The notes: generated by a model not told the origin, from the letters alone. DNA of 64,000 bases from an uncultured Candidatus Saccharibacteria bacterium (GCA_965230915.1 OZ246395.1:12019-76018), one strand, 5' to 3'; numbered from the stretch's first letter, positions 9,218-47,718 are shown. Program-made: numbers and translations.

Positions 9218-9221
9218 TATT

Positions 9222-9920: not shown

Positions 9921-9926
9921 AATAAT

Positions 9927-27642: not shown

Positions 27643-28386
27643 ATGGAATCTGCTGCCATAAAAAACGATTTAATAAAAACCCTTAAGCTAATTAAGGCTG
27701 AAGAAATTCCGGTTTTAACCGAAGAAATTACAAGCTATTTTATTGCTTCAGATAAATCATCACAGCTTAATAAACCTTCGGTTCTAACTGCTTTAAATGA
27801 GTTACAACAAGAGAGAAAAGTTTTTTCCGAAGATGAATTTATAAGTTTTTCTGAAAGCTTTAAAGATAAAATAAAAGACAGGTTAGATTTAGAAGAGTCG
27901 ACGAGGGAAAAGTCTAAATATACAAAAAATCTATTTAAATTTTTAGAAAATTTACCATTTGTAAAATTTGTTGCGGCAAGCGGAAGTTCACCTTTTGGCC
28001 GAATTGCTAAAAACGAAAAAATAAAATTAATAGTAGTTGCAGATAAAGAAACCAGGCATTTATCAGAATTCTGTATAAAAAAATATTTACAGCTCAATCG
28101 GGCTTATAAAAACTTTGAAGTCGAAAAAGTTTTTGAAAGCGATAATCTTAAGTGGCATCGACCAGACGCTGAAAGCGCAATAAAACTTTTAAATATGATT
28201 GTGGTTATAAGTAAAAATAAAACCTACGAGAATTTTATGGCAACTAATAATTGGATCTTTGATATTTTTTCTAATTATCCACTAGAAAAAGTAAGCTGGG
28301 GATTCAGGGTTACAAAAAATATTGATATCAAAACTGCACCAATTTTTAAAACTTTAAACAAATTTTTGACGCCAAAAGCATTATAA
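27643..28386 (+). CDS. hypothetical cytoplasmic protein
   Basis: No recognisable motifs; convergent with the giant secreted-protein gene. Confidence 0.35.
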   Translation: MESAAIKNDLIKTLKLIKAEEIPVLTEEITSYFIASDKSSQLNKPSVLTALNELQQERKVFSEDEFISFSESFKDKIKDRLDLEESTREKSKYTKNLFKFLENLPFVKFVAASGSSPFGRIAKNEKIKLIVVADKETRHLSEFCIKKYLQLNRAYKNFEVEKVFESDNLKWHRPDAESAIKLLNMIVVISKNKTYENFMATNNWIFDIFSNYPLEKVSWGFRVTKNIDIKTAPIFKTLNKFLTPKAL

Positions 28387-31300
28387 ATCGTATTTCTCTC
28401 TGTAAGTTTTTTGCAGGTTTTCGACTTCTTCTTTAAATCCTTTTGGCATTTGGTCTATAGGTGTTTCCATCGTAAAGTTTCCTTTAGCAGAATATCTATT
28501 TAGGATTTCTTCGAGATCTGCTGCTATTTCTGCCTGAATAACTTCAGGATCAACTTTTGTCTTAACAGGGGTCATTACGGTTTGGGCGACCATTTGTGTC
28601 GGAGATTTTTCTTTTGTAATTGGTGCTGTGCCTTCGTTATCGCAAGTAGACGAAAGTTGTCCGCCTGTACAATATTGGCGTAATCCCATTTGGAATAATC
28701 CGTAGTCGCAATAACCGATATTTGCTCCCCATCGGCCTTCGGTGAATTCATCAGGTCGGCAGGATCCGTAATATCCTCTTAAAGCTCGCTTAACTGCATC
28801 GAAGTTAGATTCACTAATTGTTCCGTTTCTGTAGTCGACTCCAGCTTTTTGTTTTAGTACACGAGCAGCCAATGTTGGCGCGACTTGAGGATTGCATCGT
28901 CCATCTTTTCGATATTCGCTTTGTGGTGTTCCCGCTGCCCATCTTTGAATGTTCCAATTCTTTTGTTCTGTAGGGTCTGTTATATCGAAGACTGTGTCGT
29001 CAGTAATTTGGAACGGACCAGTTGCAGTTACGCTATTTCGTGAACATGAATTTAAGCTGCCGCCTCCTTCTATATCTAATATAACGGCGATAAGTCTTGC
29101 AGGAACGCCTGAATCTAATCCTACATTTTCGATTTGTTTTAATGTATCTCCACTAATATTGTTGCTACCCGGTGCAGAACTAAAGAAGTTTCCGCCGCCA
29201 CGGAGTGATGATAAGAATGGTTCGCACAACCCAATTGCCCGTGTAGGAAAGTCTGATGGAAGGCTTCCCGCTGCTTCGCTTAAACAATATTGTGCGGCCT
29301 GACTAAAGTGGTCGGTGTATTCGATGTACATACTTCTGGTATCGCTGCCGCTAATACTTAAATCAAGACAATCTTGCGGTCCACCAAGCCCAAATCTTGC
29401 CAACGCATTTGATAACGGGTTACTTCCGCAATTAGGTGTGGTATTGTTTCCACTCGCGTTAGATCCTGAAATACCTCCAAGTGAAAGTTTAAGTTCGAGC
29501 TCGTGTTTGCTAGGCTTTGGATCAAAATAAGAGTCGCTGACTCCCGGTACCTTATATAAACCCTGAAAAACCTGGAAGTCATAATTGCTTCTATTTTGGT
29601 TTAATTTACCCATAAAACGGCTTGGGACATATCCATATAAAAGATATTGGCGTTCACCAAATGTGCATGACCATTTTTCGTCTCCTTCATGATAGACCCC
29701 ATTTATATCTGTATAGCCTTCTTCTTCATCTTTTTCACAGTGATAGTTAAATAATTTGGCACCAGCTGCATAAAGACTTTTTATAAAGTCTGAAAATATA
29801 TTTCCTACAGAAATTGAAATATCCTCTTTATCTTCTATGTCCTTTGCTAATCTGAAAGTTTGATTTCCGGTTTGGCAGAATCCTTTTTCGCAATTTGGAT
29901 CATCTGTGACTTCTAATAAATCTTCGGCATCCATAGTTGCGCATTCTCCACCAGGAGCCCAAGTTTCACATTTTGTACAGTCGATTGGTGGAGGTGGTCT
30001 GTCGTCGACAATCCCACAAGCTCCTTCATTTGGACAGGTACATACTGGTCTTTGTGTACAGTTAGGATTGTCCGAATATGGAGCGCTACTATTTGTAATT
30101 TGGAAATGAACTTTAAGTTCCATTTTGTTTTCAGCAAGCTCACGTGGAGTTACAGGAATTGAACATCCTGGTAAAGTTTCAATCGGGACTCCATATTTTT
30201 CGCCATCATTACCGTTAGGGTTGTAAATTGGAAGACCAGCTGACTTATGTAGGTTCCCTCCATTTGGATTTCCACATGTACTGATTTGTGTTGATTGGCC
30301 GGTTGTTTTGTCGGTTACCCAATATTCAATATAGTAGCCCCAGTCGACAGGTTGAGGACACTCGGGTTGACCGTTCCATACTTTTACTGAAAACTGATTT
30401 TCTGCAGTTTTGTTTTCGATTAATATGTGAGCGCCTTGGCAATATGGCTGAGCTTCTTCATATGGAGGAGCTGCTTGAGCCTGTGCCTGTTTTGGATTTA
30501 CCGGATTTATATTATCGAGCGAATAAGAAGTTCCAATCTCTTCATCAGAATCTGTTGGGGTTTTTAGAACAACATCCGCAATATAACTTTGTGTATTTTT
30601 ATTTTGATCAGCATTTTGTTTTGCTAAAAGTTGTTGCTCTTGAGCATAATAGTCTTCTAATGATGTTGCTAATATAGTGCTTCTTCCGATTGGAACTGTG
30701 TCGCCGGGTTTTTTTACAACTGCAGCACTAAAATCCCATAGAACTTTGTCCATCGCCTGACGATCGGCTGGTTCTAAAAGTTTAATTTTATCTGCTTCAT
30801 TCATTGAAAATTTAATTAGATGTCCCATACCTATACAGGCTTCTGGTGGATCACCCGGACCACATTTTTCACCGCTTTTATCGTTCTTTAAACACTCTTC
30901 ACCTGTAGATGGATCGCAAACAGATGACTGCAAACATCCGATGAACGCCTGATTAAAAGCTAAATTATCAATTGTAGATTTGCGGCCTGGTTTAATTCCA
31001 TCTTGGCTGGGATAAACACGAGCCTGAAATGCTGCATAAGTCTCTGTTGTTCCTTGCTTTTCTGGTTGAGCCTGAATTTCAAGACCTCCTTGATATATAA
31101 ATCCTGGAATATGCGAAGTTATATAAAGAGGCAAAGATCTTGGCGTAATAGTACTGGGTTTATATTGAGCAATAGCCTTATTATTAATAAAGTCATCATT
31201 TGTAGCTGCCAATGAACCGATATATTTTTGCGTCATTGTACTAAAATCGGTGCTCCAATATTTAGTAGGGGCTATAACAATTCTTTCAGTTACAACCGCG

Positions 31301-32226
31301 CTAACAATATCTCCTTCATTTTCTTTTTCATCGGTTGCGCTGGCATAAATTTGCCAAGGACCTTTTCCATCTGGCGATGGGTCTTGATGTCCTATAACTT
31401 GGCCTCTATATAAAGTCTGGTCTGTTTTAATCGGGCCAACGCATTGGCTTTCACCTGTTCCACCGGCGCTTGTTAGCAAAGCACAAACTTTTACGTTGTT
31501 AACTTTTGGAGCCGTTGCAGTAACTTTATTTGTAATACTTGAGCCACGTCCAAATCCGATCCAGCCATAATCTTTTGCATATAAGAATGTTTCACCTTTT
31601 CCATTACCTTCTAGGATTTGAACTTCAACAACATCACTTATCGTTCCGAGTGATCCTCCAACGTTGTAAGTATCGTAGTGGCGATTGAATTTCATCGCGA
31701 ATCCGGTGTAACCGGTAAATGGAGCATTACATCTTGAACAATTTAATCCGTCTTTCTTGAATCCGACAATTGTATGGTCTGACGTCATTACATCGCCTTC
31801 GCACATATTTCTTTTTATCCATTTAGCCGGAGCATAGCTGGCTAAATCGACAGTGTTAGGGTCAACATTTCCTGCAACCATTGTGAAACCTGCATCAAAG
31901 CCTTCGCATTGAACATTTCCGTTTTCGGTTGCCCATGAAGTATCTCTCAAGTGATAAATATAATTTGCGTCATATGCGAATTCTTCATAAACTTCACCGG
32001 TAGCGTTTTTAACTATATAGAAGCCAGGCATTCCCATTACGGTGCTTTGCACGTTATAGAATCTTTCTCCACTGCTGATTAAATTCGCACTGCCCTGACC
32101 AGAAGGGTTAAAGTAATCAAGCATATCAACACAAGTTTGGGCATAGCTTTTTGTAGGGGCAATTAGCGCAGCCGCAAAAATTGCGAGTACGATTATTAAA
32201 TTTTTAGATCTAATAAAATAATTCAT
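28381..32226 (-). CDS. giant (1281 aa) secreted Cys-rich protein with weak C-terminal SLT/lysozyme-like motifs
   Basis: Signal peptide MNYFIRSKNLIIVLAIFAAALIAPTKSYA; more than 50 Cys spread along the chain; a C-terminal segment (about 28700-29080) has E...S..TATGPFQI and GLFQM motifs reminiscent of lytic transglycosylases. Confidence 0.55.
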   Translation of the reverse strand: MNYFIRSKNLIIVLAIFAAALIAPTKSYAQTCVDMLDYFNPSGQGSANLISSGERFYNVQSTVMGMPGFYIVKNATGEVYEEFAYDANYIYHLRDTSWATENGNVQCEGFDAGFTMVAGNVDPNTVDLASYAPAKWIKRNMCEGDVMTSDHTIVGFKKDGLNCSRCNAPFTGYTGFAMKFNRHYDTYNVGGSLGTISDVVEVQILEGNGKGETFLYAKDYGWIGFGRGSSITNKVTATAPKVNNVKVCALLTSAGGTGESQCVGPIKTDQTLYRGQVIGHQDPSPDGKGPWQIYASATDEKENEGDIVSAVVTERIVIAPTKYWSTDFSTMTQKYIGSLAATNDDFINNKAIAQYKPSTITPRSLPLYITSHIPGFIYQGGLEIQAQPEKQGTTETYAAFQARVYPSQDGIKPGRKSTIDNLAFNQAFIGCLQSSVCDPSTGEECLKNDKSGEKCGPGDPPEACIGMGHLIKFSMNEADKIKLLEPADRQAMDKVLWDFSAAVVKKPGDTVPIGRSTILATSLEDYYAQEQQLLAKQNADQNKNTQSYIADVVLKTPTDSDEEIGTSYSLDNINPVNPKQAQAQAAPPYEEAQPYCQGAHILIENKTAENQFSVKVWNGQPECPQPVDWGYYIEYWVTDKTTGQSTQISTCGNPNGGNLHKSAGLPIYNPNGNDGEKYGVPIETLPGCSIPVTPRELAENKMELKVHFQITNSSAPYSDNPNCTQRPVCTCPNEGACGIVDDRPPPPIDCTKCETWAPGGECATMDAEDLLEVTDDPNCEKGFCQTGNQTFRLAKDIEDKEDISISVGNIFSDFIKSLYAAGAKLFNYHCEKDEEEGYTDINGVYHEGDEKWSCTFGERQYLLYGYVPSRFMGKLNQNRSNYDFQVFQGLYKVPGVSDSYFDPKPSKHELELKLSLGGISGSNASGNNTTPNCGSNPLSNALARFGLGGPQDCLDLSISGSDTRSMYIEYTDHFSQAAQYCLSEAAGSLPSDFPTRAIGLCEPFLSSLRGGGNFFSSAPGSNNISGDTLKQIENVGLDSGVPARLIAVILDIEGGGSLNSCSRNSVTATGPFQITDDTVFDITDPTEQKNWNIQRWAAGTPQSEYRKDGRCNPQVAPTLAARVLKQKAGVDYRNGTISESNFDAVKRALRGYYGSCRPDEFTEGRWGANIGYCDYGLFQMGLRQYCTGGQLSSTCDNEGTAPITKEKSPTQMVAQTVMTPVKTKVDPEVIQAEIAADLEEILNRYSAKGNFTMETPIDQMPKGFKEEVENLQKTYREKYDL

Positions 32227-33251
32227 TATCTTTTTATGGCTTCTAACATTAGGTATCCCGTTCCTGATCGGTTTCCTGAGACTCTAACATTTGCTTCTAA
32301 AATGTATACAGGAACAATATAATTATCAACCGCAAGGTAAGCAATGTGACCGCGCACAATATTTATAGATTCAATAGGATCTCCGATCGGATAAGTTCCA
32401 TTAACTAACTTAGCTTTTGTATTTTCGGTTTGAAGATCTCTTCTTATTTCATTTGTATCTAATAGTTCGTAGTCACCGACCGAACTCCCAATAGTTCCTG
32501 ATGCCTCATAATATAATCTTGAGATGTCACCCTTACTATTTAGCCAGATGGTAATTGTATTTGGAACTAAGCTCGATTCCTTATCAATAATAGGGAGGTC
32601 TTTCACCCTGGCTTGATATTTAAGTTGAATTAAATTTGCTCCACGGGCCTGATCTGTTAATTCAGGGTGGTCAGAAGTCGCTATCACATAAGAATTTTCG
32701 AAATATTCATACGTTGTATTTGGTAATTCGAGTTTTCTAATAAAATCTTCGGCACTTTGCTTGTAAAGATCTATATTGGCCGAAACAGCAAAATTTGTAT
32801 TCTCTGATTCTGACTGAACAGCCAAATCGGTATAAGTTAATTCGCCTATTGATGGATAAACAACCAAGTTCTTTTGTCCTTCGCTGGCTAAAATTACCCT
32901 TCTGAGTTCAGCATCATTTGAAGTGGAAACTTTAGTTAACCCCAATTTATTCGGAAGTCCATCTGCAAAATCCTCGGGAAAATTATTAGCAGGATTAAAT
33001 TCATACATTGGTAGACGATCATAGAATGGAGCTGTTAACGAAAAATCAGGTGACACATTAAATTTGGTATTCGGGGTCGTAACAGTTTGAGATGGGTCTG
33101 GCTTTAATTTATCCTCGATTTTAACATCGGCCAATGGATAAGGCGCAGAAGTTTGGTTCAAAATTTCATCGCGTGCAATTTGGTACAACAAATATCCCAT
33201 GATTGCGATGATTATTATAAATGTAATTGTTAGTATTAATTTTCTAGTCAT
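32226..33251 (-). CDS. membrane-anchored extracytoplasmic protein (341 aa), hypothetical
   Basis: N-terminal TM LILTITFIIIIAIMGYLLY; the internal ATG at 33249-33251 abuts the upstream stop at 33253 (coupled); its stop overlaps the downstream start (ATGA at 32226). Confidence 0.45.
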   Translation of the reverse strand: MTRKLILTITFIIIIAIMGYLLYQIARDEILNQTSAPYPLADVKIEDKLKPDPSQTVTTPNTKFNVSPDFSLTAPFYDRLPMYEFNPANNFPEDFADGLPNKLGLTKVSTSNDAELRRVILASEGQKNLVVYPSIGELTYTDLAVQSESENTNFAVSANIDLYKQSAEDFIRKLELPNTTYEYFENSYVIATSDHPELTDQARGANLIQLKYQARVKDLPIIDKESSLVPNTITIWLNSKGDISRLYYEASGTIGSSVGDYELLDTNEIRRDLQTENTKAKLVNGTYPIGDPIESINIVRGHIAYLAVDNYIVPVYILEANVRVSGNRSGTGYLMLEAIKR

Positions 33252-33252
33252 A

Positions 33253-36200
33253 TTATCTCGACATATTACACGAAGCCGACCCCACACATGATTTTGGAAC
33301 GTTCTCCGGAATATATGAGCCAGGTTCTGGCGTGTCACTGTATCTAATTAATCTTAATGGTTTCCCTGGTCCAAGACATTCAACACTTGTGTTTACAAAT
33401 TCGTAGTGTAAGTGAGGTCCTGTTGAATTTCCCGATGTGCCCATTTCTCCAATTATCTGATTGGCTTCTATTTGTTGGCCAGTACTTACGGCTATTGAAG
33501 ACATATGGCCATATATAGTAGCAAAGCCTAATGGAGATATAACTTTTACATAATGGCCATATCCATCTGGATCATCGCCTCTGAAAGCTGTTCCATTATG
33601 GGTAGCTTTTATAGCTTGTCCTATACCCGAGGCCATGTCCAAAGCTTCTGCATTTTTATGGCTGTCATATGTATATGCTGTTTGAGTCAATGTAAAAGGT
33701 TGTGTCGGCCATCCTGCGGGACAAACCGAACAGCCACCTGCTCCAAATTTTGTACTTACCGATGCCTCGCCCTTTTTACCAGGGTCTTCTTCAACTGTTA
33801 CTTCTATATTGTTTAGATAAGTTCCATCCGTTGTTAAAATGTTTTCTAAGATAAATGGGGGAAGAGTTAATATTTGTCCCGGTTGAATTGTTCGTGACGG
33901 CAAATCTCCAAGATTTGGGAGGGCAACTTTTCCATAAGTAGCGTCTGATGTAACTTCAACAATACCTCCTCCGCTTGCGCATGATTTCGAATATAAAAGA
34001 GTATCGGTAAAGCCATCAATATTTAGAGGAATTGGATTTGGTGCATTTGTTGCCTCATCTATTGCCGTATCAGTAATGTTTCTAATTGTGATTGTGTATT
34101 CAATTCCGCTTCCGTTAGAAACCTGTCTGGCTGTTTTTGTAACCTGAAATTTTTTCGAGCTAATAACATCTGAATATGCGCCGCCTCCGGTTGACGGTTC
34201 CATCGGCGCCATCATTGCGATAATTCCTATTACAAAAATCATAGGGATGATAAAGCAAGAACATCCCCCAAGAACAATTCCTAATACAACACGGCTGACT
34301 GTACGAAGTTTCGCCATGAGCATTTCCCACGATGACTTGAATGCAAAAGAGAATTTTCCCTGCAGAATCTTTGATGTAAAATTCCAAACGACATCGCCAA
34401 CAGCAGCTAGTATGTAGCTGATTCCCCCGGTTACAATACCGGCCGAATTTGAAAGTATAAAGCCTAGGCTTTTTAGAACTACAGGACTCAAAAACTTTGT
34501 TAATGTTTTTGCAACAACGCTGGTTGCTATAGTCGGATTCGCGCCAAGGCCAGAGAATTTTGTACCAATACCTGTAAGGAATTTTACAAAGCCCCATTTT
34601 TCAACAGCACCCATTAAAAGTGTCTCGTCGCCAAAGCCGGAATTACGTAAAAGATCTTTGAAAGGTTCGAAGATCTTAACGGCAGTTTTAATTAATGCAT
34701 TATTGCCAGCGTATCCTCCCCAAAGAATTTCGCGGTATAAGAAGGTGTACATCGCATTTGCTGTACGGTTGTATTTATTTAATAAACCTGCAAAAGGTGC
34801 TGTAAATTGTTTTACTTTTCCTTCTTTTACAATTCTCGCTAAGAATTCAAAGCGATCAGCTAAACCTAGTGCAAATGAACCTGGATGATTGTTGGGATCA
34901 GATAAATATTCTAATAAGGCAAAACCTCCGGCATTCGGTGTATTCAAGTTTGTAATGTTTTGGCTAAGTTTTCCAACCTTCTCGGCTGTAGTTAGTCCTA
35001 ATCCTTCTGCCAATATTTCGAAACTTGTTGTAGGTACGTTGCCTGCAACAATCGAATTGCCAGCATTTCTAAGTTCGTCCATGAAGTTTCTTGCACGGTC
35101 GAGGTCGGCCAAAAGGTAGTCTGGGTCAAAATCTGCAATATTTGCAAAACCACAATCTAATAATAATTGGCCACCCGCGCCTGTAGATTTTCCCCATGAC
35201 TTATCTAAAACATCATATAAGCTGTAGTCCCCAAAAAGACCGTTAGATTTTTGTAGGCCGAAGCCGCTGGTAACTGCGGGTGCTCCATCTGGTACGATTT
35301 TTATTGCCGTTTGTGTCCATTGCGCATTGTTTGTTGGCCCTTGTCTCCAGCTTACGTATGTTTCGGCTTCGAATAATTTTTTCGGAGCGAGTCTTGAAAT
35401 TAGTTTTAAATCTTTAAGTTCGCCGGCTTCAAATGCAAGTCCGGTTGCTGTACCAATAAAGCCATTAAGCTTTCTTGTATTTCCAATAATATTAATTTTA
35501 TCGAGGTATTTTACATATTCGCTGACTGTTCCCCATCTAGGGTCTGTGAAGGGTAGGACGTTAAGCATTTTACTCGAAAGCAAAACGACTTCTATGAATT
35601 TTTTGCTTTCAATACTTTCTAATATTTCTTTTGTGGTAGATGCAAAGAACAAATTGTTAGCAATTTTCGATGACCTTGTAGCCGCCATTATTCTATCTCT
35701 TGCGATAGCTCCGGCAGAATTGATTCTTGTTGTTGCAGCCCCTACTTCGGCGTTTAATGTTGTAGGAATTCGAGTATCCGCAAAACTGACAAAAGGAGTG
35801 TCTCCTGGGATAGCGTATAAACTATTGAATTTAGCAAGTTCCGCTTCTCCTACGATTGTTTTTGCCGCATTGCTAATTCCGGCAAGAACTTCTGGCTGGT
35901 GCAATTTCGCCTGCAATTCAGCCTCAAGTGCTCGTTGAGTTTTTAATCTATCTAAATATCCCTTTTTTAAAAGTTGCTTTTCGCTTTCAAGAACAATACG
36001 AGGCCTGGGTGGTTGAGGTGTACCTGGTGGAGAACCTGCTGGTATAGCTGGTCTTGGTGCTGCTAAATTAGGAACGCTAAATAAATTGGCGTCGCTAAGT
36101 TGAGGAACATCTAGCTCGAATGCACTTGCGAATTCTGCACCTGCGGCATCTTTTAATTTTTCCTGATATAGACCTTGGTTTACAAACTCGCTTCTTAAAA

Positions 36201-37233
36201 ATGCTTTTGAAAATTCCTTGTTTTCGCCGGTTAGGTTATCCCAGATAGCATTTTGTTTTGCCGTCGCAGTTGCTGCATCTCCTAAGCCTAGGGCTTTTCT
36301 TAATTTTGCATCGTTGTTAAGGATATCGTTAAATGCATCATTTGCGTTTGTGATTCCATGTAAAGCGGCTTGCTCCTGGAATGTTTGTGAAAATGCTCCT
36401 TTGGATTCATAAATGCCAGGTCTGCCTGTTGCAGGATTTATTCCGCGTCTTTCTTTAACCTTTAATACGTCGTCTAAATTTATTCCAAGTTCACTGGCAA
36501 CAGCCCTGTTATAAGCAGTAATACTGCCTGTGTGATAAATGGAACGTGGGGTTGCACTTTCCATGTACCCTGACAACGCAGTTAGTTGTCCTGATAAATC
36601 TCTGTAGGCTTTATAACTTGCTTCACGGTTCGTACCCTGCTCCCAAACTTGCCTGTCTTCGTATCTGTCAGCTCCAATTGCTTGAACTAGTTTTATTTTT
36701 GATTGTGGACCTCCAATGCCGCCGACATCGACAAGGTCTTCCGTATCAACAACGCTAATTCCCAGGCCTTTAGCCACTCGAGTTCCTAAATTTTGTGGCT
36801 TAAGAACTTCTGACCCTTTAACTGTTGTTAAGTTACCTTTTGTTAATGCTTCAAGTACGTCGCTTCGTCGGTCGCCGGCAAGCTCATCAAGGTTCATGAT
36901 ATCGTTGCGAGTTTGTTGATTTAGCTTTTGTAATGTCTGTAGTGGCTCACTTATGAGTTTCGTTAAATCAACCTTTGTATTAACGCCTTTTACATCTAAT
37001 AATGCTTCCTGGCCCCCGGCAACAAAGGTGCTAATGATTGCTTCATCGACTTCATCTGAAATAGTGGCTCTTACCTGAAGGGTAGTTAAGTTTTGTTTGA
37101 AATCTTTGTCGTAAAAGCCAATTACATCTTTTACAATTCGATCCTTTATAGATCTTGGAACATCAATCGGAGCTCTATAAAATTCTTTTACAAAACTTCT
37201 TAATGTTAAATCGTCATTTTTTGGTGGCGGCAT
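33253..37233 (-). CDS. giant (1326 aa) protein with internal TM cluster and C-terminal M23/LytM metallopeptidase domain
   Basis: No signal peptide; hydrophilic N-terminal region of about 900 aa; 3-4 TM helices near residues 930-1010; C-terminus HNGTAFRGDDPDGYGHY...GTSGNSTGPHLHYEF (HxxxD and HxH zinc ligands). Confidence 0.6.
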   Translation of the reverse strand: MPPPKNDDLTLRSFVKEFYRAPIDVPRSIKDRIVKDVIGFYDKDFKQNLTTLQVRATISDEVDEAIISTFVAGGQEALLDVKGVNTKVDLTKLISEPLQTLQKLNQQTRNDIMNLDELAGDRRSDVLEALTKGNLTTVKGSEVLKPQNLGTRVAKGLGISVVDTEDLVDVGGIGGPQSKIKLVQAIGADRYEDRQVWEQGTNREASYKAYRDLSGQLTALSGYMESATPRSIYHTGSITAYNRAVASELGINLDDVLKVKERRGINPATGRPGIYESKGAFSQTFQEQAALHGITNANDAFNDILNNDAKLRKALGLGDAATATAKQNAIWDNLTGENKEFSKAFLRSEFVNQGLYQEKLKDAAGAEFASAFELDVPQLSDANLFSVPNLAAPRPAIPAGSPPGTPQPPRPRIVLESEKQLLKKGYLDRLKTQRALEAELQAKLHQPEVLAGISNAAKTIVGEAELAKFNSLYAIPGDTPFVSFADTRIPTTLNAEVGAATTRINSAGAIARDRIMAATRSSKIANNLFFASTTKEILESIESKKFIEVVLLSSKMLNVLPFTDPRWGTVSEYVKYLDKINIIGNTRKLNGFIGTATGLAFEAGELKDLKLISRLAPKKLFEAETYVSWRQGPTNNAQWTQTAIKIVPDGAPAVTSGFGLQKSNGLFGDYSLYDVLDKSWGKSTGAGGQLLLDCGFANIADFDPDYLLADLDRARNFMDELRNAGNSIVAGNVPTTSFEILAEGLGLTTAEKVGKLSQNITNLNTPNAGGFALLEYLSDPNNHPGSFALGLADRFEFLARIVKEGKVKQFTAPFAGLLNKYNRTANAMYTFLYREILWGGYAGNNALIKTAVKIFEPFKDLLRNSGFGDETLLMGAVEKWGFVKFLTGIGTKFSGLGANPTIATSVVAKTLTKFLSPVVLKSLGFILSNSAGIVTGGISYILAAVGDVVWNFTSKILQGKFSFAFKSSWEMLMAKLRTVSRVVLGIVLGGCSCFIIPMIFVIGIIAMMAPMEPSTGGGAYSDVISSKKFQVTKTARQVSNGSGIEYTITIRNITDTAIDEATNAPNPIPLNIDGFTDTLLYSKSCASGGGIVEVTSDATYGKVALPNLGDLPSRTIQPGQILTLPPFILENILTTDGTYLNNIEVTVEEDPGKKGEASVSTKFGAGGCSVCPAGWPTQPFTLTQTAYTYDSHKNAEALDMASGIGQAIKATHNGTAFRGDDPDGYGHYVKVISPLGFATIYGHMSSIAVSTGQQIEANQIIGEMGTSGNSTGPHLHYEFVNTSVECLGPGKPLRLIRYSDTPEPGSYIPENVPKSCVGSASCNMSR

Positions 37234-37281: not shown

Positions 37282-38649
37282 ATGAAATTTTACACAAAGG
37301 CGAAACATATAATTGTAACAGCTTTGATATTTTTTACCATTTTTTCATTTGTATTTCCTGTTATTGTTAGCGCGCAATCAGAAGACGATGTTTTTTACCC
37401 CGGGCTAGGCCGTATAGGTGAACAACTTTCAATGAGATATTGGGCGAAAACATTTGTTATGGGGACTGCAGTTGACGTTACTTTAGCAATTGCATGCGGA
37501 GGAGAAAACGATAAAGAAAATACATGGGGAACTCCAAATGGTGCAGAAAATTGTGTCCCTCCGATTGAACGTGTAAGCGCAAGTTTGCAGGGTGACCAAC
37601 CCAGAATGATGGGAGGACTTGCTTCTGTAAGTGCCTTAGCGATGGACTATAGCGTTAACGAGCCAATGATTCCAACAGACATGGCGTTATTTTTAGATGA
37701 TACATTCGATCAAACTCTATTTTCATCACCATCATATGCACAGAACTTACCAGAGAATTTATCTAAACCAGATGAATTTTTTCAATCAGCTACATACACA
37801 CTTTGGAAAAGCGCCAGAAATATAGCACTAGGGCTATTAGGTGTGTTATTAGGAATTGCAGGACTTAGCATTTTATTCAGAAGTAAACTTAGCCCACAGG
37901 TTACAGTTACTGTTGCAAATGTTTTACCTTATTTGCCACTCTCAATTATTGGTATCGTTTTATCGTATCCAATAATTGCAGTTATATTTAATTTATTAGA
38001 GCCATTATTATCAATTGCTTGGGCATTAGGAGCTGGAATTGTTGTAGAGCTATCTGTTGGTGCGGTTGATACATCAAGAGGTGTTTATGCTTTAGTTGGG
38101 CAATCATTTAAAGCTCTTCTAAGCCCTATGACTTGGTTAGGTGTAAGTAATATTGCAACAATTTCTTTTATTTTAGTCTTGATCATGCTTGTCGCATTGG
38201 TCATGGTTTTAATCGCTACCGCCAGATATATCTTTGAATATGCTAAAACAATGGTTCTTTTTGTTTTTTACGTTATAGCTTTTCCATTGCTTTCAGCAAT
38301 CGCAATCTTGCCAGGTAAACAGAATTTATTTTCTGTATTATTCAAGAAAGTTTTGGCCAATTTATTAGCCTTGCCGATAATGACCTTATTTACTCTAATT
38401 GGTCTTGGGTTTATCGCTTCTATACTTCCAGCTGTTCAAAGCGGAGCTTCAACCGGTTTACTTGGGTTAGAATACATTAGTGTTGGAGGAAATATATTTG
38501 CAGCCATTGTTAGATTCGCAATCGGTTGGGGAATAGTATGGAATTCATTTAAAGCTAGAAAAATGTTAGAAGACTTCTTTGGTGCAGGCGGATCATTGGC
38601 ATCAACCTTCCAAGGTGGCGGATCATCAGGCCCTCCAGGAAAGAAATAA
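37282..38649 (+). CDS. polytopic (about 8 TM) membrane protein with signal peptide and extracytoplasmic N-domain, VirB6/TrbL-like candidate
   Basis: Signal MKFYTKAKHIIVTALIFFTIFSFVFPVIVSAQS; extracytoplasmic domain of about 120 aa, then multiple TM; Gly-rich tail. The ORF-track start at 37246 leaves only 12 bp to the divergent gene, so the ATG at 37282 is preferred. Confidence 0.4.
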   Translation: MKFYTKAKHIIVTALIFFTIFSFVFPVIVSAQSEDDVFYPGLGRIGEQLSMRYWAKTFVMGTAVDVTLAIACGGENDKENTWGTPNGAENCVPPIERVSASLQGDQPRMMGGLASVSALAMDYSVNEPMIPTDMALFLDDTFDQTLFSSPSYAQNLPENLSKPDEFFQSATYTLWKSARNIALGLLGVLLGIAGLSILFRSKLSPQVTVTVANVLPYLPLSIIGIVLSYPIIAVIFNLLEPLLSIAWALGAGIVVELSVGAVDTSRGVYALVGQSFKALLSPMTWLGVSNIATISFILVLIMLVALVMVLIATARYIFEYAKTMVLFVFYVIAFPLLSAIAILPGKQNLFSVLFKKVLANLLALPIMTLFTLIGLGFIASILPAVQSGASTGLLGLEYISVGGNIFAAIVRFAIGWGIVWNSFKARKMLEDFFGAGGSLASTFQGGGSSGPPGKK

Positions 38650-38697: not shown

Positions 38698-39093
38698 TTA
38701 GAGTGTATCGTTGACGAAAGTGCTTAGTGCGTCTAACCAGAATTGAACATTTCCCAATCCAAAGAATGCTAAGAAAAGGTTTAGTAAAAATCCACCACCA
38801 CCTATTACAACAAAGGCTAACAGCAGAGTATACGGCCACTGATGTGCCAGTTCTTCTAAAACACTAGAGTTTTCTCGGTTCATTGCAGTTTTGTATATCA
38901 AAAACATTGAGATAATTATTGCGACGGCAACCAATATGATTTGGAATGTGGTCCATGCTTTTGGAACAGCACAATTTATGTAGCTTCCAACGTCGAAGTA
39001 ATATCCTGAATCTGCGGGTAAATTCCACCCGTCTGTACCTGTATATGAGGCGCCAGAATCATTAATATATGAAGTGTTATAACAATCCGCCAT
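38698..39093 (-). CDS. VirB2/TrbC-like two-helix membrane protein (paralog 1) with small Cys-containing N-domain
   Basis: TM1 FQIILVAVAIIISMFLIY, loop KTAMNRENSSVLEELAHQWPY, TM2 TLLLAFVVIGGGGFLLNLFLAFFGL. Confidence 0.4.
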   Translation of the reverse strand: MADCYNTSYINDSGASYTGTDGWNLPADSGYYFDVGSYINCAVPKAWTTFQIILVAVAIIISMFLIYKTAMNRENSSVLEELAHQWPYTLLLAFVVIGGGGFLLNLFLAFFGLGNVQFWLDALSTFVNDTL

Positions 39094-39170: not shown

Positions 39171-40268
39171 ATGTACTTAACAATGCGAAAATTACTTGCA
39201 ATTTTTATATTAGCTATATCTCCGCTTTTTATTTTTTCTAACCGAGTATCAGCAAGAACAACACCAGACCCTGGCTACGGTATGGAGGCTCAATATATCG
39301 GTGAACCAGAAGTCACTCCCGAAAAAATTAAATTCAAGTTTATTGTAATGAATACTGGCAAGCTTAAATCTTGGGGCATAGATGTATATGTGGTCGGCTT
39401 TACAAGTAAGGGTTGTACTTATAGTCCTTCGCCCAATTTTAATATTGATGATCCTAATAATTCTTTTGGTTACAGTGGTCACCCTCCTACAGAATTTGAG
39501 GCAGAATGTACGATTACTACAGCTGTAGCTTCTGACCTTGATGGAGATATGTATCTCGATATATATAATGATGGAGAAGCCTGGGGGCCAAATAGTGATG
39601 TGATTATTGGCAGTAAGGCAATACAATATGATTTCGGATTTGGATCGGTAAGTTTCGACGGGTATCCAGAGGCACTAGGTGGAAATGTTTTTAAATTTAA
39701 ATTAACAGCTGGTCCTCGCGCAGTTGGTATAAATACTAATTTAGTTGTATCAAGTCCTTCGATACCTGCTTCATGGAATGGCGGGGGTGTATATAACTGT
39801 CCTGAAGTTAATTTTCCAGCATTAGGTGGAGTGGAAACAAAAGAAATTCAATGCGATTTTAACCAATTATCTCCGGGGAATTATAATATAGCAGCTGTTC
39901 TTGGTAAGCCAAGCGTCAGTGATACTGGAGGTGACACATTTGATACAACCGCGATAACCATTGTTGCCCCAGGGCAGCCACCGGTTCAACCTGGGGGCCC
40001 AGGTGGACCACCCATTGTTCCGCAATATAGTTTATTTGACTTGAATTCGTTCTTTGGACTTTTGCAAAATATAATAATTGCAATCGCTGTTGTTTCAGGT
40101 ATTTTTATTATTCCTTATGCATTTATATTAATGGCTAGTGGAAACCCTGAAAAAATTAAGCAAGGTACGGAATGGTTAAAGTCGATTTTATGGGGGTACT
40201 TGGTTGTCTTCTTAGCTGCAACCTTAATAAGATTTGTCGGAAGCGATATCTTAAGCCTCGGGATTTAA
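39171..40268 (+). CDS. secreted 365-aa protein: N-terminal extracellular domain, Pro/Gly linker, C-terminal VirB2-like hairpin (paralog 2)
   Basis: Signal peptide; beta-rich domain; GQPPVQPGGPGGPPIVPQ linker; C-terminus IIIAIAVVSGIFIIPYAFILMASGNPEKIKQGTEWLKSILWGYLVVFLAATLIRFV aligns with the loop motif of ORF 42329. Confidence 0.45.
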   Translation: MYLTMRKLLAIFILAISPLFIFSNRVSARTTPDPGYGMEAQYIGEPEVTPEKIKFKFIVMNTGKLKSWGIDVYVVGFTSKGCTYSPSPNFNIDDPNNSFGYSGHPPTEFEAECTITTAVASDLDGDMYLDIYNDGEAWGPNSDVIIGSKAIQYDFGFGSVSFDGYPEALGGNVFKFKLTAGPRAVGINTNLVVSSPSIPASWNGGGVYNCPEVNFPALGGVETKEIQCDFNQLSPGNYNIAAVLGKPSVSDTGGDTFDTTAITIVAPGQPPVQPGGPGGPPIVPQYSLFDLNSFFGLLQNIIIAIAVVSGIFIIPYAFILMASGNPEKIKQGTEWLKSILWGYLVVFLAATLIRFVGSDILSLGI

Positions 40269-40384: not shown

Positions 40385-42220
40385 CTAATCTTTCACTTCT
40401 ATATTAAATAGGGCGCTTTTTATTTGAAGTGCTCCTGGGGCTCTAAGGTTAAATATAGCTTTAAAATCGTCTCCGCTAACTTTCATTTCTCCTTTATTAG
40501 TTTTAATTTTTACTTCTGAAGTTTCTCCACCTGAAGAATAAGTTACACTTACGTCGCTTACTTTGGTTATGCCTGACTTATCAGCGACATCATCGCGTGA
40601 CCATGTATCGTCGATGTCTTCTCCCCAACAACTTTCTGCATCAACTTGAGATAAGTGCTTTTGGTTATCTTTATCTTCTTTATACAAAGCGACGGCGCCA
40701 ACAATATCTGCAAATTCTTTTTCGGTTAACCATGGATGTTTGCGACCGCATGCTTCGCCGCCTCTAGTTTTGTACCAGCCTTTATAGAACCATGGGGAAC
40801 CACCTTTGCTTTCATAAGCTTCGCTTGTCCAACAATCTCTAGAACCGCATTTTGTATCCCAGCCACCCTTGGTTTTGTGACCTAAACTAGTGTATTGATA
40901 GTTATATCCACCGGATGAAGCGGCATATAGTGCTGAAAATATTTGATCGGTATCATTTCCGATCATTACCATACCTTTTGTTTCTTCAACTGCTTGATGC
41001 CATCGTGCAGCGGAGGATGCGGTGGCCTTTGATGACGACCAAACCTGACAACTTTCCGTGGTGCAAATCCTGCCTCCGCCCCCGCCACTACCATTGCGCC
41101 ATCCGACATATGCCATTGCGTATGTACGTGCAGCTATAGCTTGAGCTTTTAGAGCTTCCATTGGCCAATCGGCCGGCATTTCTGCGAGTCCTTTTAGATA
41201 TTTCCCATCTAGTGACATTTCCCCTTTATCTGTATTAATAGTATCTGGAAGATCCGGCTTGGTAATATCGACATCACCATAATATGCTTTCAAAATATCT
41301 TTGTAGTTTTGGCCAGATTCAGCACGGCCTTTTGCCCCATATTGGCTTAAACCCTGTCTATGTGGAGCTCCAAAAGAGAACCCTGCAAAGGCCGGTGAAA
41401 ATCCGGGATTATAATTAGCTTGTGATGCAGCGTCGCCCGTAGATGGAACATCTCCCACACTAGTAGTAAATGTTCCAGTTTTAGCTTCTAATAGTGATTT
41501 TTGTTTTGCAGATAATTCGTTAAGCTTGCGCTCTAGGCTGGCTTTTTCGTTTGAAACATTCCTAAGTTGTGCCTGTTGAGTCGCCGCCTGGGCTGATAGT
41601 TTTGAAACTAAAGTTTGAACCTCTTTTTTTTGCGTCTCTACCTGTGCTTTTATAGCTTCAACTTCCTTTTTATCACTTTCATATTGGGCAATATTTCCAT
41701 TGAGAGAGCCTATAAATTGTTTTGAGCTGTCGATAAAGCTTAAATGATATGCGGCATCTTCTGCAGCCTTAGAAAGGCTTGAAGTTGAGAAGAGCATCTC
41801 TAATAAGCTTTGCTGGTTCGATATATATAAACTTCTAACTGTTTTATCGCGGATTTTTGTGCTTGAATCTAGCTCAATCTTTTTTAGATCAAGTTTCTTA
41901 TTTAGGTTTGAGATATCATCTGTTAGCCCTTTGATTTGTGAATTTAAAGAATTAATCTGGCTTTGATTAACATTAATCTGGCCAGTTAAGTTCTTTATAG
42001 CTGCAGATATTGAATCGGCTTTCGCTTTTATATCGCTTAATTTGCCTTCTGTTTCTTTGATATCTTTCTCAAGCTCTTCTATTTCGGCATCTTCATCAGC
42101 ATATGAATAGGTGGTAAACTGGCTAGATATAGCCAACACAGATATGAAAGTGTAAAGAGTGAGCAAAAAGATCTTAAGTAATGTCTTTGGGGCTCTATTT
42201 CGATTTGGCAGCATCTCCAT
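40385..42220 (-). CDS. membrane-anchored coiled-coil protein with SpoIID/LytB domain (peptidoglycan-remodelling)
   Basis: N-terminal TM; about 200 aa of heptad-rich coiled coil; SpoIID signature ...ALKAQAIAARTYAMAYVGWRNG...; strong Gly-rich loops. Confidence 0.62.
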   Translation of the reverse strand: MEMLPNRNRAPKTLLKIFLLTLYTFISVLAISSQFTTYSYADEDAEIEELEKDIKETEGKLSDIKAKADSISAAIKNLTGQINVNQSQINSLNSQIKGLTDDISNLNKKLDLKKIELDSSTKIRDKTVRSLYISNQQSLLEMLFSTSSLSKAAEDAAYHLSFIDSSKQFIGSLNGNIAQYESDKKEVEAIKAQVETQKKEVQTLVSKLSAQAATQQAQLRNVSNEKASLERKLNELSAKQKSLLEAKTGTFTTSVGDVPSTGDAASQANYNPGFSPAFAGFSFGAPHRQGLSQYGAKGRAESGQNYKDILKAYYGDVDITKPDLPDTINTDKGEMSLDGKYLKGLAEMPADWPMEALKAQAIAARTYAMAYVGWRNGSGGGGGRICTTESCQVWSSSKATASSAARWHQAVEETKGMVMIGNDTDQIFSALYAASSGGYNYQYTSLGHKTKGGWDTKCGSRDCWTSEAYESKGGSPWFYKGWYKTRGGEACGRKHPWLTEKEFADIVGAVALYKEDKDNQKHLSQVDAESCWGEDIDDTWSRDDVADKSGITKVSDVSVTYSSGGETSEVKIKTNKGEMKVSGDDFKAIFNLRAPGALQIKSALFNIEVKD

Positions 42221-45900: not shown

Positions 45901-47250
45901 TTAATTTTCAGTTTTAGTAAACGAAGATTTAGTAAGAGGATAATTTATTATTTTTGCATTTTTATTCCCGGGTAATGGGAATGGCTCTCCCTCAAAGTCT
46001 GATATTTTGTAATCCCCAAAAATAAAATCTTCTGGCTTCATAATTATTTTGCCTTTCCACGCCGGGACTTCGTTCCAACCCATTACACCTATTACTTTTA
46101 TATTGTCTTTGCCCAGATAATATTGGTACGGGAATAACCATCCAGCATTTTCTATCAGAACAACTTGATTCTCTCTTAGTAACTGGGCCTTATCAGAGAT
46201 ATTTATTTTTAGATATGAATTCCAATAGCCGAAAGCATAAATATTTATAAGGCTTACAGATATTAGTATCATGCTCAATGTTATTTTATTGTGAATTATC
46301 CTATCTAAATAAACTGCCAATATAATAAAAATAGGTGCAAATGAAAACCAATAATACCTCCAATAGAATATATGACTCTGGAAAGATATTATTGTAAATA
46401 TAATTAGCGATCCCAGAGCAGATAACCACAGTAAACTATAAAAAGTGTTTGGTGTATTTTTTATAGTTTCAATATCCTTTTTCCCATATTTAATTAGGCT
46501 ATATATGAATACAATAGTTATTATTAAATATATTGGGCCTGTCGAATCAAAAAAATCTGAAAGGCGTCCTATATAGAGTTGAATTGGGAGAGCAAAGAGC
46601 GTAAATAAATTAGGATTAGTTGATACCCAGGTATTTATTGAGCCGTCAGAAATCTTTACTAAATAGAATGTTATTAGCCAAGGTATATAGAATATAAAAG
46701 AAATTACATTATAAATTGATAATCTTATCGATAAATCTTTATCTTTAAAAAATAAAACTCCAAAATATAAAAATAGACCTAACACAAAAAATAGTGAGGA
46801 GGTGTTCAAAAACAATAGAACAACATTCGTTAAAATAAACCAAGCCGATCTTTTATTTATTAAAATGAGCGATATCAAAACTAATGCTGCCTGCATTATA
46901 TACATACGACCTTCTGTTGCAAAATAAAGCATTGCCGGAGAAGTAAAAATAAATACAAGAAAAGCATATCTAGTGTACTTTTCTATTTCCATGAATTTTA
47001 GTGCTTTATTAAATAATGGAATAAATAGTAAATATGTAATTAAGCTCGGAATACGTATCGCGAAGGGTGAACTTCCAAATATAATCATCCAGTAATGTAT
47101 AAAATAATAATAAAGTGGAGGGTTAAAGTCAGAAAGTGTCAGAAAAGTTATATCTGAAATACTTTTTTGCGATAAAAATATGGTGAAGGTTTCGTCTAAC
47201 CAAAGTCCGTCCCATAAAGAAGTGAATGTTCCAGCTAAATATTCGATCAT
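45901..47250 (-). CDS. GT-C family glycosyltransferase (ArnT/PMT, GT39/GT83-like)
   Basis: N-terminal loop with the DE motif (WLDETFT), about 11 TM, lipid-carrier-dependent mannosyl/arabinosyl-transferase-like architecture. Confidence 0.42.
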   Translation of the reverse strand: MIEYLAGTFTSLWDGLWLDETFTIFLSQKSISDITFLTLSDFNPPLYYYFIHYWMIIFGSSPFAIRIPSLITYLLFIPLFNKALKFMEIEKYTRYAFLVFIFTSPAMLYFATEGRMYIMQAALVLISLILINKRSAWFILTNVVLLFLNTSSLFFVLGLFLYFGVLFFKDKDLSIRLSIYNVISFIFYIPWLITFYLVKISDGSINTWVSTNPNLFTLFALPIQLYIGRLSDFFDSTGPIYLIITIVFIYSLIKYGKKDIETIKNTPNTFYSLLWLSALGSLIIFTIISFQSHIFYWRYYWFSFAPIFIILAVYLDRIIHNKITLSMILISVSLINIYAFGYWNSYLKINISDKAQLLRENQVVLIENAGWLFPYQYYLGKDNIKVIGVMGWNEVPAWKGKIIMKPEDFIFGDYKISDFEGEPFPLPGNKNAKIINYPLTKSSFTKTEN

Positions 47251-47345: not shown

Positions 47346-47718
47346 TGGTGGAGATGGAGGGAATCGAACCCTCGTGCTAATAGATTTTCCGTTCAAAGTA
47401 TTACAAGCTTCGCAGTTTTAAAAATTTATATAAACCTAGTAAAACTGCAAAAGGTGTTTATATAAATGATTCCTTACTTTCGTAAAGCGTGTCTTGCGAC
47501 TTCCAATGTAGGTTGAGCTTAATAGAAAGACATTGGCAAACTTTGATCTATTAAACTGCTGATGGATAATTCCGTTCGTTTAGATTAAGCGTAAGCTATT
47601 TCGTAAACGTCAGCTGTAACGTTGTTATTGACGTTTGATTTTTGATTCAGTTTTAAGACTTATATCAGGTCTGCTTGCTTCAGACGAAGTGTCTGCTAGG
47701 CGATGCCTTGACATCCCC
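47346..47718 (-). ncRNA. ssrA: tmRNA (SsrA), 373 nt
   Basis: 5' GGGGAUG... and 3' ...GGUUCGAUUCCCUCCAUCUCCACCA form a tRNA-Ala-like acceptor stem with the G3-U70 wobble; internal candidate tag frame ending ...ADVYEIAYA-UAA; sits next to smpB. Confidence 0.8.

Follow-up and report, generated by a model that had tools for sequence, protein, structure and literature searches.

Among T4SSs, that of Saccharibacteria is the first demonstrated to be essential for the growth of its bearer (PMC10633639, PMC12857230). In Patescibacteria, T4SS clusters are found near dnaA, together with pilin arrays and M23-containing VirB1-like proteins (PMC12102498). The VirB1-class hydrolases of Gram-positive T4SSs are built from an intracellular N-domain, a TM segment and extracellular LytM/SLT/CHAP domains (PMC12857230 section 10, PMC11323569). 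In PrgK the TM segment comprises residues 254-274 and the LytM domain is degenerate and regulatory (PMC11323569, PMC12857230). A further relevant protein is SEML1_0007 of Southlakia epibionticum, which has 1113 aa and a C-terminal peptidoglycan-peptidase fold. Its gene is located between those of VirB4 and a lysozyme/CHAP protein, and epibiotic growth requires it (PMC10633639 supplements).

Here we consider a 1326-aa ORF (gene T) called within a window of 64,000 nt, the whole stretch of DNA that was analysed. We think it probable that the product is a bitopic N-in/C-out protein, predicted to act as a peptidoglycan endopeptidase of an origin-proximal Gram-positive-type T4SS/pilus apparatus in what is likely to be a Saccharibacterium (Patescibacteria). 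By prediction, its layout is the ALPHA/DELTA plan of VirB1-like proteins, with an intracellular N-domain, one TM anchor and wall-degrading activity outside, as in PrgK (pCF10, DELTA) and TraG (pIP501, ALPHA). Both of these belong to MPF_FATA-type T4SSs, a class related to those of Patescibacteria, and the LytM/M23 fold is common to PrgK and T. Hence the topology is not unusual, as an earlier note on this DNA had it, being the ordinary plan for Gram-positive T4SS wall hydrolases (PMC11323569, PMC12857230). The novelty lies in the giant, orphan inner part: it has about 980 aa in T, whereas that of PrgK has about 250 and that of TraG fewer still. Other differences from these proteins concern the outer part. 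Proteins such as PrgK, TraG and Orf14 have a glycan-cleaving domain (SLT/muramidase), usually accompanied by CHAP; T has neither, and M23 is its sole enzymatic domain; unlike the degenerate LytM of PrgK, this domain keeps most metal and catalytic residues. T further departs from PrgK and TraG in its beta-sandwich spacer, its disulfide-rich framework and a location that is not next to virB4. A plasmid search detected no sequence similarity to T beyond M23.

The resemblance to SEML1_0007 is drawn from annotation. Both proteins are Saccharibacterial, exceed 1100 aa, have no annotated N-terminal domains and end in a peptidoglycan-peptidase fold. The SEML1_0007 gene is followed by a gene of the wall glycosidase type, belongs to the T4SS region close to dnaA and scores as essential in Tn-seq; among the Foldseek neighbours of its product is a "Peptidase M23 domain-containing protein". 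However, its C-terminal fold is of the Hedgehog/DD-peptidase (M15-like) kind rather than M23, its gene is directly 3' of virB4, and the HMMER profile search for homologues of T retrieved no protein of 1113 aa.

Table 1. Features of T and of the surrounding locus, in positions of the window; aa numbers refer to T.
Feature	Position	Strand	Basis
T, predicted bitopic membrane protein with C-terminal M23 peptidase	33253..37233	-	ORF, profile match, homologues
Conserved hydrophilic N-terminus, aa 1-49, MP(P)P..[DE].TF.GW[IL]ED....P, low AF2 confidence	37087..37233	-	homologue alignment, AF2
Mixed alpha/beta region, aa 75-360, conserved KGVNT, DRR, EDR, YNR..ELG.DLD blocks	36154..37011	-	pLDDT mostly 60-90
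Pro-rich, variable, disordered linker, aa 361-418	35980..36153	-	pLDDT <50
Three long coiled-coil-like helices (416-444, 446-473, 491-542), aa 419-542	35608..35979	-	pLDDT mostly 84-89
Mainly helical region, aa 543-905, best conserved blocks LFFASTTK..LE.IE, LN.YNR.AN..R.FLYK	34519..35607	-	homologue alignment, model
Gly-rich weakly hydrophobic helix G.LTGGISY..A.G, aa 920-950	34384..34476	-	hydropathy, flank charge
Single robust TM helix (signal anchor), aa 981-1009	34207..34293	-	hydropathy, flank charges
All-beta sandwich, predicted extracytoplasmic, Ig/DUF11-like spacer, aa 1029-1163	33745..34149	-	strands throughout, pLDDT about 85-96; weak DUF7927 match in homologue P0022
Invariant GGCxxCPxGWP linker, aa 1164-1180	33694..33744	-	family alignment
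M23/LytM domain, aa 1181-1281, conserved H1192, E1196, D1199, H1243, H1274, H1276	33391..33693	-	profile, alignment, AF2
Cys-containing C-terminal tail, aa 1282-1326, C1286, C1316, C1322 conserved	33256..33390	-	family alignment
Gene B, about 341 aa, one N-terminal TM, conserved downstream partner	32226..33251	-	ATG 1 nt past T stop
Gene A, 1281 aa, signal peptide, 37 Cys, conserved downstream partner	28381..32226	-	start overlaps B stop (TAATG)
Gene C, about 455 aa, signal-peptide-like N-terminus, about 7 TM, divergent	37282..38649	+	topology
Gene D, 131 aa, small 2-TM pilin-like protein	38698..39093	-	topology, synteny
Gene E, 365 aa, signal peptide, C-terminal T4SS_pilin (PF18895, E 5e-7)	39171..40268	+	profile match
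Gene F, 611 aa, coiled coil + SpoIID domain, in syntenic module	40385..42220	-	profile, synteny
Distant T4SS locus: PrgI/VirB3-like (625 aa), 251-aa ORF, VirB4-like ATPase (TraG P-loop/AAA_10, 802 aa), adjoins dnaN/dnaA	7340..12335	+	profile matches

The gene, its start and its family

Gene T is real and encodes a predicted single-pass membrane protein of 1326 residues, the size given in the earlier note. Its start is fixed by an in-frame TAA (37239-37237) two codons 5' of the ATG and by an N-terminus that is kept in 23 homologues (22-47% identity, independent assemblies); an upstream in-frame start was looked for and none was found. Neither T nor any of these homologues has a signal peptide, and there is no hydrophobic stretch in the first ~900 aa, so the description of this part as devoid of an export signal stands. 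Comparison of the homologues, which the note had proposed, uncovered an N-terminal motif common to all 23. The note had also allowed for an artefact, in which a wrong start masks a signal peptide or a misassembly has joined two genes; a frameshift would be a further way to such a fusion. Only the unusual length, together with the lack of an obvious Shine-Dalgarno-like sequence 5' of the ATG, would speak for it. The upstream stop and the homologues, which agree in start motif, architecture and length class, refute it, and we give it practically no weight.

The lengths of the homologues are mostly 1258-1475 aa, and every full-length member carries a C-terminal M23 domain; P0018 (1171 aa) stops shortly past the TM helix and has no M23 match. 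The family is tiny, with 28 representatives in 1.84 billion in the HMMER profile search. HMMER matches to the homologues break at the linker of aa 361-418 into 2-3 stretches.

Membrane topology and domains

The earlier note counted 3-4 TM helices, whereas we find one robust helix and one marginal segment. The former (aa 981-1009) has KD values of 2.35-3.39 in 22 of the 23 members, P0018 being the exception. The latter, the Gly-rich segment of aa 920-950, has a family mean KD of 1.0-1.3 and is flanked by net positive charge on both sides; it is probably peripheral or re-entrant at the cytoplasmic face, with no clear TM character, and it could span the membrane. The 15 residues before the strong helix contain 2-5 K/R in 21/23 members, while the 15 residues after it contain 0-1 K/R in 20/23 and are net negative or neutral. 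Cysteines are also unevenly distributed. The C-terminal part of ~316 aa has 6-10 of them, always an even number and largely conserved, as against 0-2 per member in the N-terminal 980 aa (0.04% across the family). For comparison, Cys content is 2.9% in the exported neighbour A and 0.44% in the cytoplasmic proteins of the window; set against the Cys-poor cytoplasmic proteins of this genome, the N-terminal depletion is not diagnostic for T alone (P = 0.07). Because of these charge and Cys distributions, the most likely orientation is N-in/C-out, with ~980 residues inside the cell and M23 outside. This agrees with the earlier suggestion of a cytoplasmic N-terminal region. The suggestion that went with it, a VirB6-extended or TcpH-like protein, fares worse: T has one TM helix rather than 5 or more and matches no TrbL/VirB6 profile in Pfam or NCBIfam.

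AF2 predicts a largely helical structure for the ~980-aa region. Neither sequence nor fold searches matched it to anything in Pfam, NCBIfam, PHROGs, PDB, BFVD, plasmids or phages (the best BFVD Foldseek result has E 0.036 and TM <0.1), and none of the searches tied it to any T4SS component. The motif at its N-terminus (aa 1-49) is a possible docking motif.

The presence of an M23 domain, claimed earlier, is confirmed. Pfam Peptidase_M23 (PF01551) matches aa 1196-1281 with 74.4 bits (gathering cut-off 28.7), and PDB sequence matches for this part go down to 2.5e-17. In the AF2 model of aa 1011-1326 (pLDDT 88.7) an all-beta sandwich precedes the M23 fold, and the best PDB fold matches of this model are ShyA, Csd1/2/3, EnpA, DipM and LasA (Foldseek probability 1.00). 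PHROG matches are confined to aa 1158-1302. The best NCBIfam M23 matches (ShyA/ShyC, MepM, DipM, EnvC, NlpD) fall far below their cut-offs; for SLT, lysozyme and CHAP domains there was no Pfam or NCBIfam match.

The zinc site had been described as intact HxxxD/HxH. The second half of this description is right, the first is not. E1196, D1199, H1243 and the HxH pair H1274/H1276 are invariant in 19/19 members and H1192 is found in 18/19. The canonical HxxxD is absent, since the position D-4 (Ala1195 in T) is never His (0/19). What the family has instead is [S/T]-H-x3-E-[A/S]-x-D, i.e. H1192-x3-E1196-x2-D1199. Thus T has the fold, the HxH and the catalytic His and Asp in common with canonical M23/LytM enzymes (ShyA, MepM, Csd1-3, LytM, lysostaphin, EnpA), but its conserved His is at D-7 and an invariant Glu is at D-3. 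With the canonical His missing family-wide, neither zinc binding nor activity can be taken for granted. T also differs from canonical M23 proteins in being anchored internally, after 980 predicted cytoplasmic residues, and not by an N-terminal signal peptide or anchor.

The neighbouring genes

T belongs to a seven-gene module near dnaA, which contains a SpoIID gene, two pilin-like genes, a gene for a polytopic membrane protein and T-B-A, whose stop and start codons abut or overlap. The module is kept around a homologue of 28% identity and partly in loci L001 and L003. Gene A has no family match. The PF18895 pilin gene is two genes from T. VirB4, named in the earlier note as a possible partner of the N-terminal region, is no neighbour of T: the sole VirB4-like ORF (9927-12335) lies 21 kb away. 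Nor does the term "VirB6-like" find support for the divergent gene C beyond topology and context, as neither HMM nor plasmid tblastn searches detected homology to VirB6/TrbL. Because of these two facts, the link of T with a T4SS rests on the pilin gene, synteny and analogy.

The gap between T and C measures 12 bp from a TTG (37246) or 48 bp from the ATG (37282), as had been noted; it is the ATG that precedes the signal-peptide-like segment. Shared divergent regulation was proposed on these grounds. The divergent arrangement is indeed conserved, but the spacing is not tight elsewhere (166 bp in L004) and a promoter scan gave nothing above shuffles.

Potential roles of the protein

If our preferred interpretation is correct, the signal anchor would insert the chain into the membrane. 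Its cytoplasmic side would hold ~980 residues (N-terminal motif, alpha/beta region, Pro-rich disordered linker, three-helix coiled coil, helical region and Gly-rich juxtamembrane helix), and its outer side ~316 disulfide-rich residues forming the spacer, the linker and the metallopeptidase. The latter may locally cleave peptide cross-links of the wall and so make a passage for the channel or pilus; it may also act on the wall of the host where the two cells meet. The cytoplasmic part might serve as a tether or a regulator of the enzyme at the machine, and B and A, its two conserved partners of extracytoplasmic type, would be co-translated with T.

Alternatively, T may be a general enzyme of wall remodelling or division, unrelated to the T4SS, in which an anchored M23 and a SpoIID-type lytic transglycosylase act in growth, septation or budding and the cytoplasmic domain connects the protein with the cytoskeleton or divisome, as happens for regulated LytM factors. 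A SpoIID homologue within the conserved module would fit such a role, as would the best NCBIfam matches, which are growth and division M23 proteins (though far below their cut-offs, as stated above), a VirB4 gene that is not adjacent and a gene C that is not demonstrably VirB6. Yet the PF18895 pilin gene and another gene for a small pilin-like protein are part of the same module, a family this narrow is unlike a core division factor, and the layout resembles the Southlakia pair of T4SS peptidase and lysozyme. We regard a division role as unlikely, if worth keeping in mind.

Lower still we would place the idea, raised in part in the earlier note, that T, or its N-terminal stretch of 900 aa, leaves the cytoplasm without a Sec signal. 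One possibility would be a surface component or substrate of the T4SS with both ends outside, held by a hairpin of aa 920-950 and 981-1009; another would be delivery to the host envelope, or into it, so that the wall is breached, as with M23 phage ejection/tape-measure proteins. The two segments may indeed pair, the loop between them being net +1 to +4 in 22/23 members; the N-terminus is conserved and yet predicted to be disordered, as a recognition motif would be; and the region before the anchor is nearly free of Cys throughout the family. Against this, the hydrophobicity of aa 920-950 does not reach TM level in most members and net positive charge is found on the N-side flank as well, the low Cys content is shared by cytoplasmic proteins of the genome, and the very hydrophobic, charge-polarised helix of aa 981-1009 is typical of a stable anchor. 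As to phages, M23 is found at the ends of their long, mostly helical tape-measure/ejection proteins, after hydrophobic segment(s), and PHROG and PDB matches to T concern the M23 part. However, T is chromosomal, with pilin genes and no phage genes around it, and searches of PHROG, BFVD, phages (by tblastn) and plasmids gave no match for its N-terminal region. An identity as a phage tape-measure or ejection protein is not borne out, and export in general is improbable.

Returning to a peptidase of the T4SS, one bolder version can be mentioned, to which we give little credence. The 980-aa orphan region could be a new inner-membrane-platform or regulatory module of the T4SS, which docks via its N-terminal motif and makes the outward, catalytically unusual (Hx3Ex2D) M23 respond to host contact or to the ATPase cycle. 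Cross-links would then be opened as required, perhaps those of the host wall where the cells touch, in a gated breaching of the wall for epibiotic feeding. A wall peptidase joined to a very large, conserved, fold-orphan region that is predicted to be cytoplasmic is a candidate link between motor and wall opening, and the family provides a defined handle on topology, zinc site and interaction partners. Among its members, one of 45% identity is found in an uncultured Saccharibacteria MAG.

The target protein and its family

The target, the 1326-aa protein with a C-terminal M23 domain, has no signal peptide, as the earlier note held. An in-frame TAA lies two codons 5' of its ATG, so no longer reading frame can supply one, and hydropathy places no hydrophobic stretch in the first ~900 residues. 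Its sole Pfam domain is Peptidase_M23 (aa 1196-1281, 74.4 bits against a cut-off of 28.7), which confirms the enzyme domain, and NCBIfam and PHROGs matches are confined to the same stretch. The N-terminal region has no match in Pfam, NCBIfam, PHROGs, PDB sequences, plasmids or phages.

Might such a protein be an artefact? An exact-sequence look-up found no record of it, and word-indexed searches (with the single protein and two alignments) gave, beyond the target itself, one homologue. Profile search of genome contigs with a 4-sequence alignment gave one locus. One homologue comes from a MAG labelled "uncultured Candidatus Saccharibacteria". When 1.84 billion representative proteins were searched exhaustively by HMMER, with a profile restricted to the N-terminal 1015 residues, 28 proteins emerged, nearly all of 1170-1475 aa. 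The conserved N-terminal region sought among homologues does exist: a hydrophilic start motif, MP(P)P..[D/E].TF.GW[I/L]ED, is common to all 23 sequences of the family alignment (identity 22-47%), and M23 forms the C-terminal end of every full-length member. Similar lengths, the same start and the same end rule out a fusion artefact. Neither a missed upstream start nor a joining of two genes, the two errors that had been feared, was found, given the TAA and 23 homologues built alike; the artefact explanation is refuted. This narrow lineage-specific family is new.

The AF2 model of aa 1011-1326 (19-sequence alignment; pLDDT 88.7, pTM 0.81) consists of a beta-sandwich (aa ~1029-1163), an invariant GGCxxCPxGWP linker and the M23 fold, in that order. 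Its Foldseek matches are ShyA, Csd1/2/3, EnpA, DipM, EnvC, LasA and lysostaphin. The model of aa 1-1015 (14-sequence alignment; pLDDT 66, pTM 0.69) is divided into regions in the table. This very large, conserved, fold-orphan region, predicted to be cytoplasmic, is new.

The non-canonical M23 metal motif is also new. In an alignment with TagE (PDB 5j1l), the canonical HxxxD His corresponds to Ala1195 of the target, and none of 19 members has His in that column. In place of HxxxD the family has [S/T]-H-x3-E-[A/S]-x-D, with H1192 in 18/19 and E1196 and D1199 in 19/19. Every member has Glu at D-3, and in a few of them 2-4 residues are inserted between His and Glu (33391-33693, minus; family alignment A5). 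H1243, H1274 and H1276 are invariant across the family. Hence, of the HxxxD and HxH ligands described as intact, HxH (H1274/H1276) stands and HxxxD does not.

Features of the window and regions of the target
Feature	Position	Strand	Size	Remarks
Second T4SS locus	7340-12335	plus		PrgI/VirB3-like, 251-aa ORF, VirB4-like; beside dnaN/dnaA
VirB4-like ATPase	9927-12335		802 aa	TraG P-loop/AAA_10; 21 kb from target
Gene A	28381-32226	minus	1281 aa	signal peptide, 37 Cys; conserved downstream of target homologues
Gene B	32226-33251	minus	about 341 aa	bitopic; always follows target
Target ORF	33253..37233	minus	1326 codons	
Gene C	37282-38649	plus		divergent, polytopic; signal-peptide-like start, about 7 TM helices
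Gene D	between C and E		131 aa	2 TM
Gene E			365 aa	C-terminal PF18895 T4SS pilin domain, E 5e-7
SpoIID homologue	40385-42220	minus		N-terminal coiled coil; member of conserved module, also in L004/L005 (loci with target homologues)
Target, N-terminus	aa 1-49			AF2: low confidence, yet sequence conserved
Target, mixed alpha/beta region	aa 75-360			AF2
Target, Pro-rich linker	aa 361-418			disordered, variable (AF2)
Target, three long helices	aa 416-542			AF2, pLDDT mostly 84-89
Target, largely helical region	after aa 542			AF2 pLDDT >90 around aa 710-760
Target, juxtamembrane helices	end of N-terminal model			AF2

Membrane topology

The 3-4 transmembrane helices claimed earlier reduce to one strong hydrophobic segment in family-averaged hydropathy, aa 981-1009, whose best-window Kyte-Doolittle value is 2.35-3.39 in 22/23 members; the exception is P0018, a 1171-aa homologue that ends soon after the helix without an M23 match. 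The Gly-rich aa 920-950 are marginal, with mean hydropathy of only 1.0-1.3, below threshold in many members. Their flanks are net positive on both sides (+1 to +6 on the N-side and +1 to +4 on the C-side, each in 22/23), which argues that this stretch does not cross the membrane and lies on, or dips into, its cytoplasmic face. Around the strong helix, the 15 residues on the N-side hold 2-5 Lys/Arg in 21/23 members and the 15 on the C-side 0-1 in 20/23, the latter being net negative or neutral in most.

Cysteines are partitioned likewise. The N-terminal ~980 residues have 0-2 Cys per member (9 in 22,246 residues family-wide). The ~316 C-terminal residues have 6-10, always an even number (leaving aside P0018, which is truncated C-terminally, and a single member that has four), conserved positions being C1085, C1168, C1171, C1286, C1316 and C1322. 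Within the window, Cys content is 2.9% in the secreted neighbour A and 0.44% in cytoplasmic proteins, so the C-terminal part resembles a disulfide-bonded extracytoplasmic region and the N-terminal part a cytoplasmic one. From four concordant lines of evidence we infer a single-span, N-in/C-out protein. The cytoplasmic placement suggested in the earlier note thus gains support from flank charges and Cys partition; the suggested VirB4 partner does not adjoin the target, being 21 kb off.

Gene order and a possible function

T (the target), B and A are closely packed as one operon: the ATG of B lies 1 nt past the T stop, and that of A overlaps the B stop, A being translationally coupled. The order recurs in L001 and L003, two other loci with target homologues. 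Neither A nor B has a family match in Pfam, NCBIfam or PHROGs, and A has no PDB match; a putative SLT-like motif close to the C-terminus of A found no support in Pfam or PDB. By placement and topology, B would fit as a candidate VirB8-like wall subunit.

On the divergent side, the label "VirB6-like" for gene C gained no support: neither C nor its homologue matches a VirB6/TrbL model (HMMs) or a plasmid gene (tblastn). As to shared divergent regulation of C and the target, the divergent orientation is kept, unlike the short gap between the genes (48 bp here, 166 bp in L004), and a promoter scan of the intergenic region gave nothing exceeding shuffles. A homologue of only 28% identity sits in the same gene order, with SpoIID and proteins of 151 aa, 390 aa (weak PF18895 match) and 458 aa, and divergently the homologue, a 342-aa protein and a large protein. 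That SpoIID occurs together with an M23 protein is reminiscent of the engulfment and "feeding-tube" machinery of sporulation, though only by analogy.

According to reviews and primary work, every VirB1 homologue known from a Gram-positive T4SS is fixed to the membrane and exposes its enzymatic domains outside the cell. In PrgK (DELTA class), a TM helix (residues 254-274) separates the intracellular N-terminal domain from extracellular LytM (degenerate), SLT/muramidase and CHAP domains; the intracellular domain of TraG (pIP501) is shorter (PMC12857230 section 10; PMC11323569). Patescibacterial T4SSs derive from the MPF_FATA type, often lie near dnaA, have VirB2-like pilin arrays and in most cases no relaxase, and some of their VirB1-like proteins carry M23 domains (PMC12102498). 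The T4SS cluster of Southlakia epibionticum ML1, SEML1_0006-0019, is essential. Within it SEML1_0007, itself scored essential, codes for a 1113-aa "hypothetical protein" and is flanked by VirB4 (0008) and a lysozyme/lysozyme/CHAP protein (0006); the one domain assigned to it is a Hedgehog/DD-peptidase fold at the C-terminus (aa 951-1105), with M15B- and M23-domain proteins among its Foldseek neighbours (PMC10633639 and supplements). By its annotation it parallels the target.

The target likewise has a predicted intracellular N-terminal part, a TM helix and a predicted extracellular enzyme domain, although it is no sequence member of the PrgK/TraG families, having no SLT, no CHAP and no similarity outside M23. 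The earlier observation is confirmed in part. The topology called unusual follows the standard layout of Gram-positive T4SS hydrolases (PMC12857230, PMC11323569), so that the first interpretation is only partly supported. By analogy with this known layout, the target would work like a T4SS-associated, membrane-anchored wall hydrolase.

Two other explanations deserve mention. The target might remodel the wall together with SpoIID, independently of any T4SS; the shared module favours this, but as the same gene order also holds the pilin-domain gene, we regard it as unlikely. Sec-independent export of the target protein, or its action on a host, is more doubtful still. N-terminal Cys depletion was considered as evidence for export and rejected as undiagnostic, because Cys is scarce in the cytoplasmic proteins of this genome too; in the target taken alone the depletion does not reach significance (P about 0.07).

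In the most likely mechanism, an internal signal-anchor would insert the chain, and ~980 residues would stay cytoplasmic. The outside part would fold with disulfides, holding the M23 endopeptidase one beta-sandwich off the membrane, where it would open peptide cross-links and let the pilus or channel encoded nearby traverse the wall. More speculatively, the cytoplasmic part (conserved N-terminal motif, coiled coil, helical region) may localise or regulate the enzyme at the machine, and B and A may act with it outside.

The second T4SS locus and the wider window

The T4SS core genes form a second locus, separated from the target module by dnaN/dnaA, and the cumulative GC-skew minimum is at 14-16 kb; the apparatus is thus split around the replication origin. 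The PrgI/VirB3-like protein there has 625 aa and a C-terminal CarboxypepD_reg domain. The window is chromosomal (dnaA, dnaN, GroEL, LeuRS, FtsH, RNR and tmRNA are present; GC about 37%). The tag predicted from the tmRNA gene (47346-47718, minus), ERNYPSAV, is without the usual hydrophobic ...LAA-type ending. ORFs of 615 aa (48248-50095, minus) and 449 aa (45901-47250, minus) have no family match, and a 944-aa protein (23711-26545, minus) has DUF4012 as its only match.
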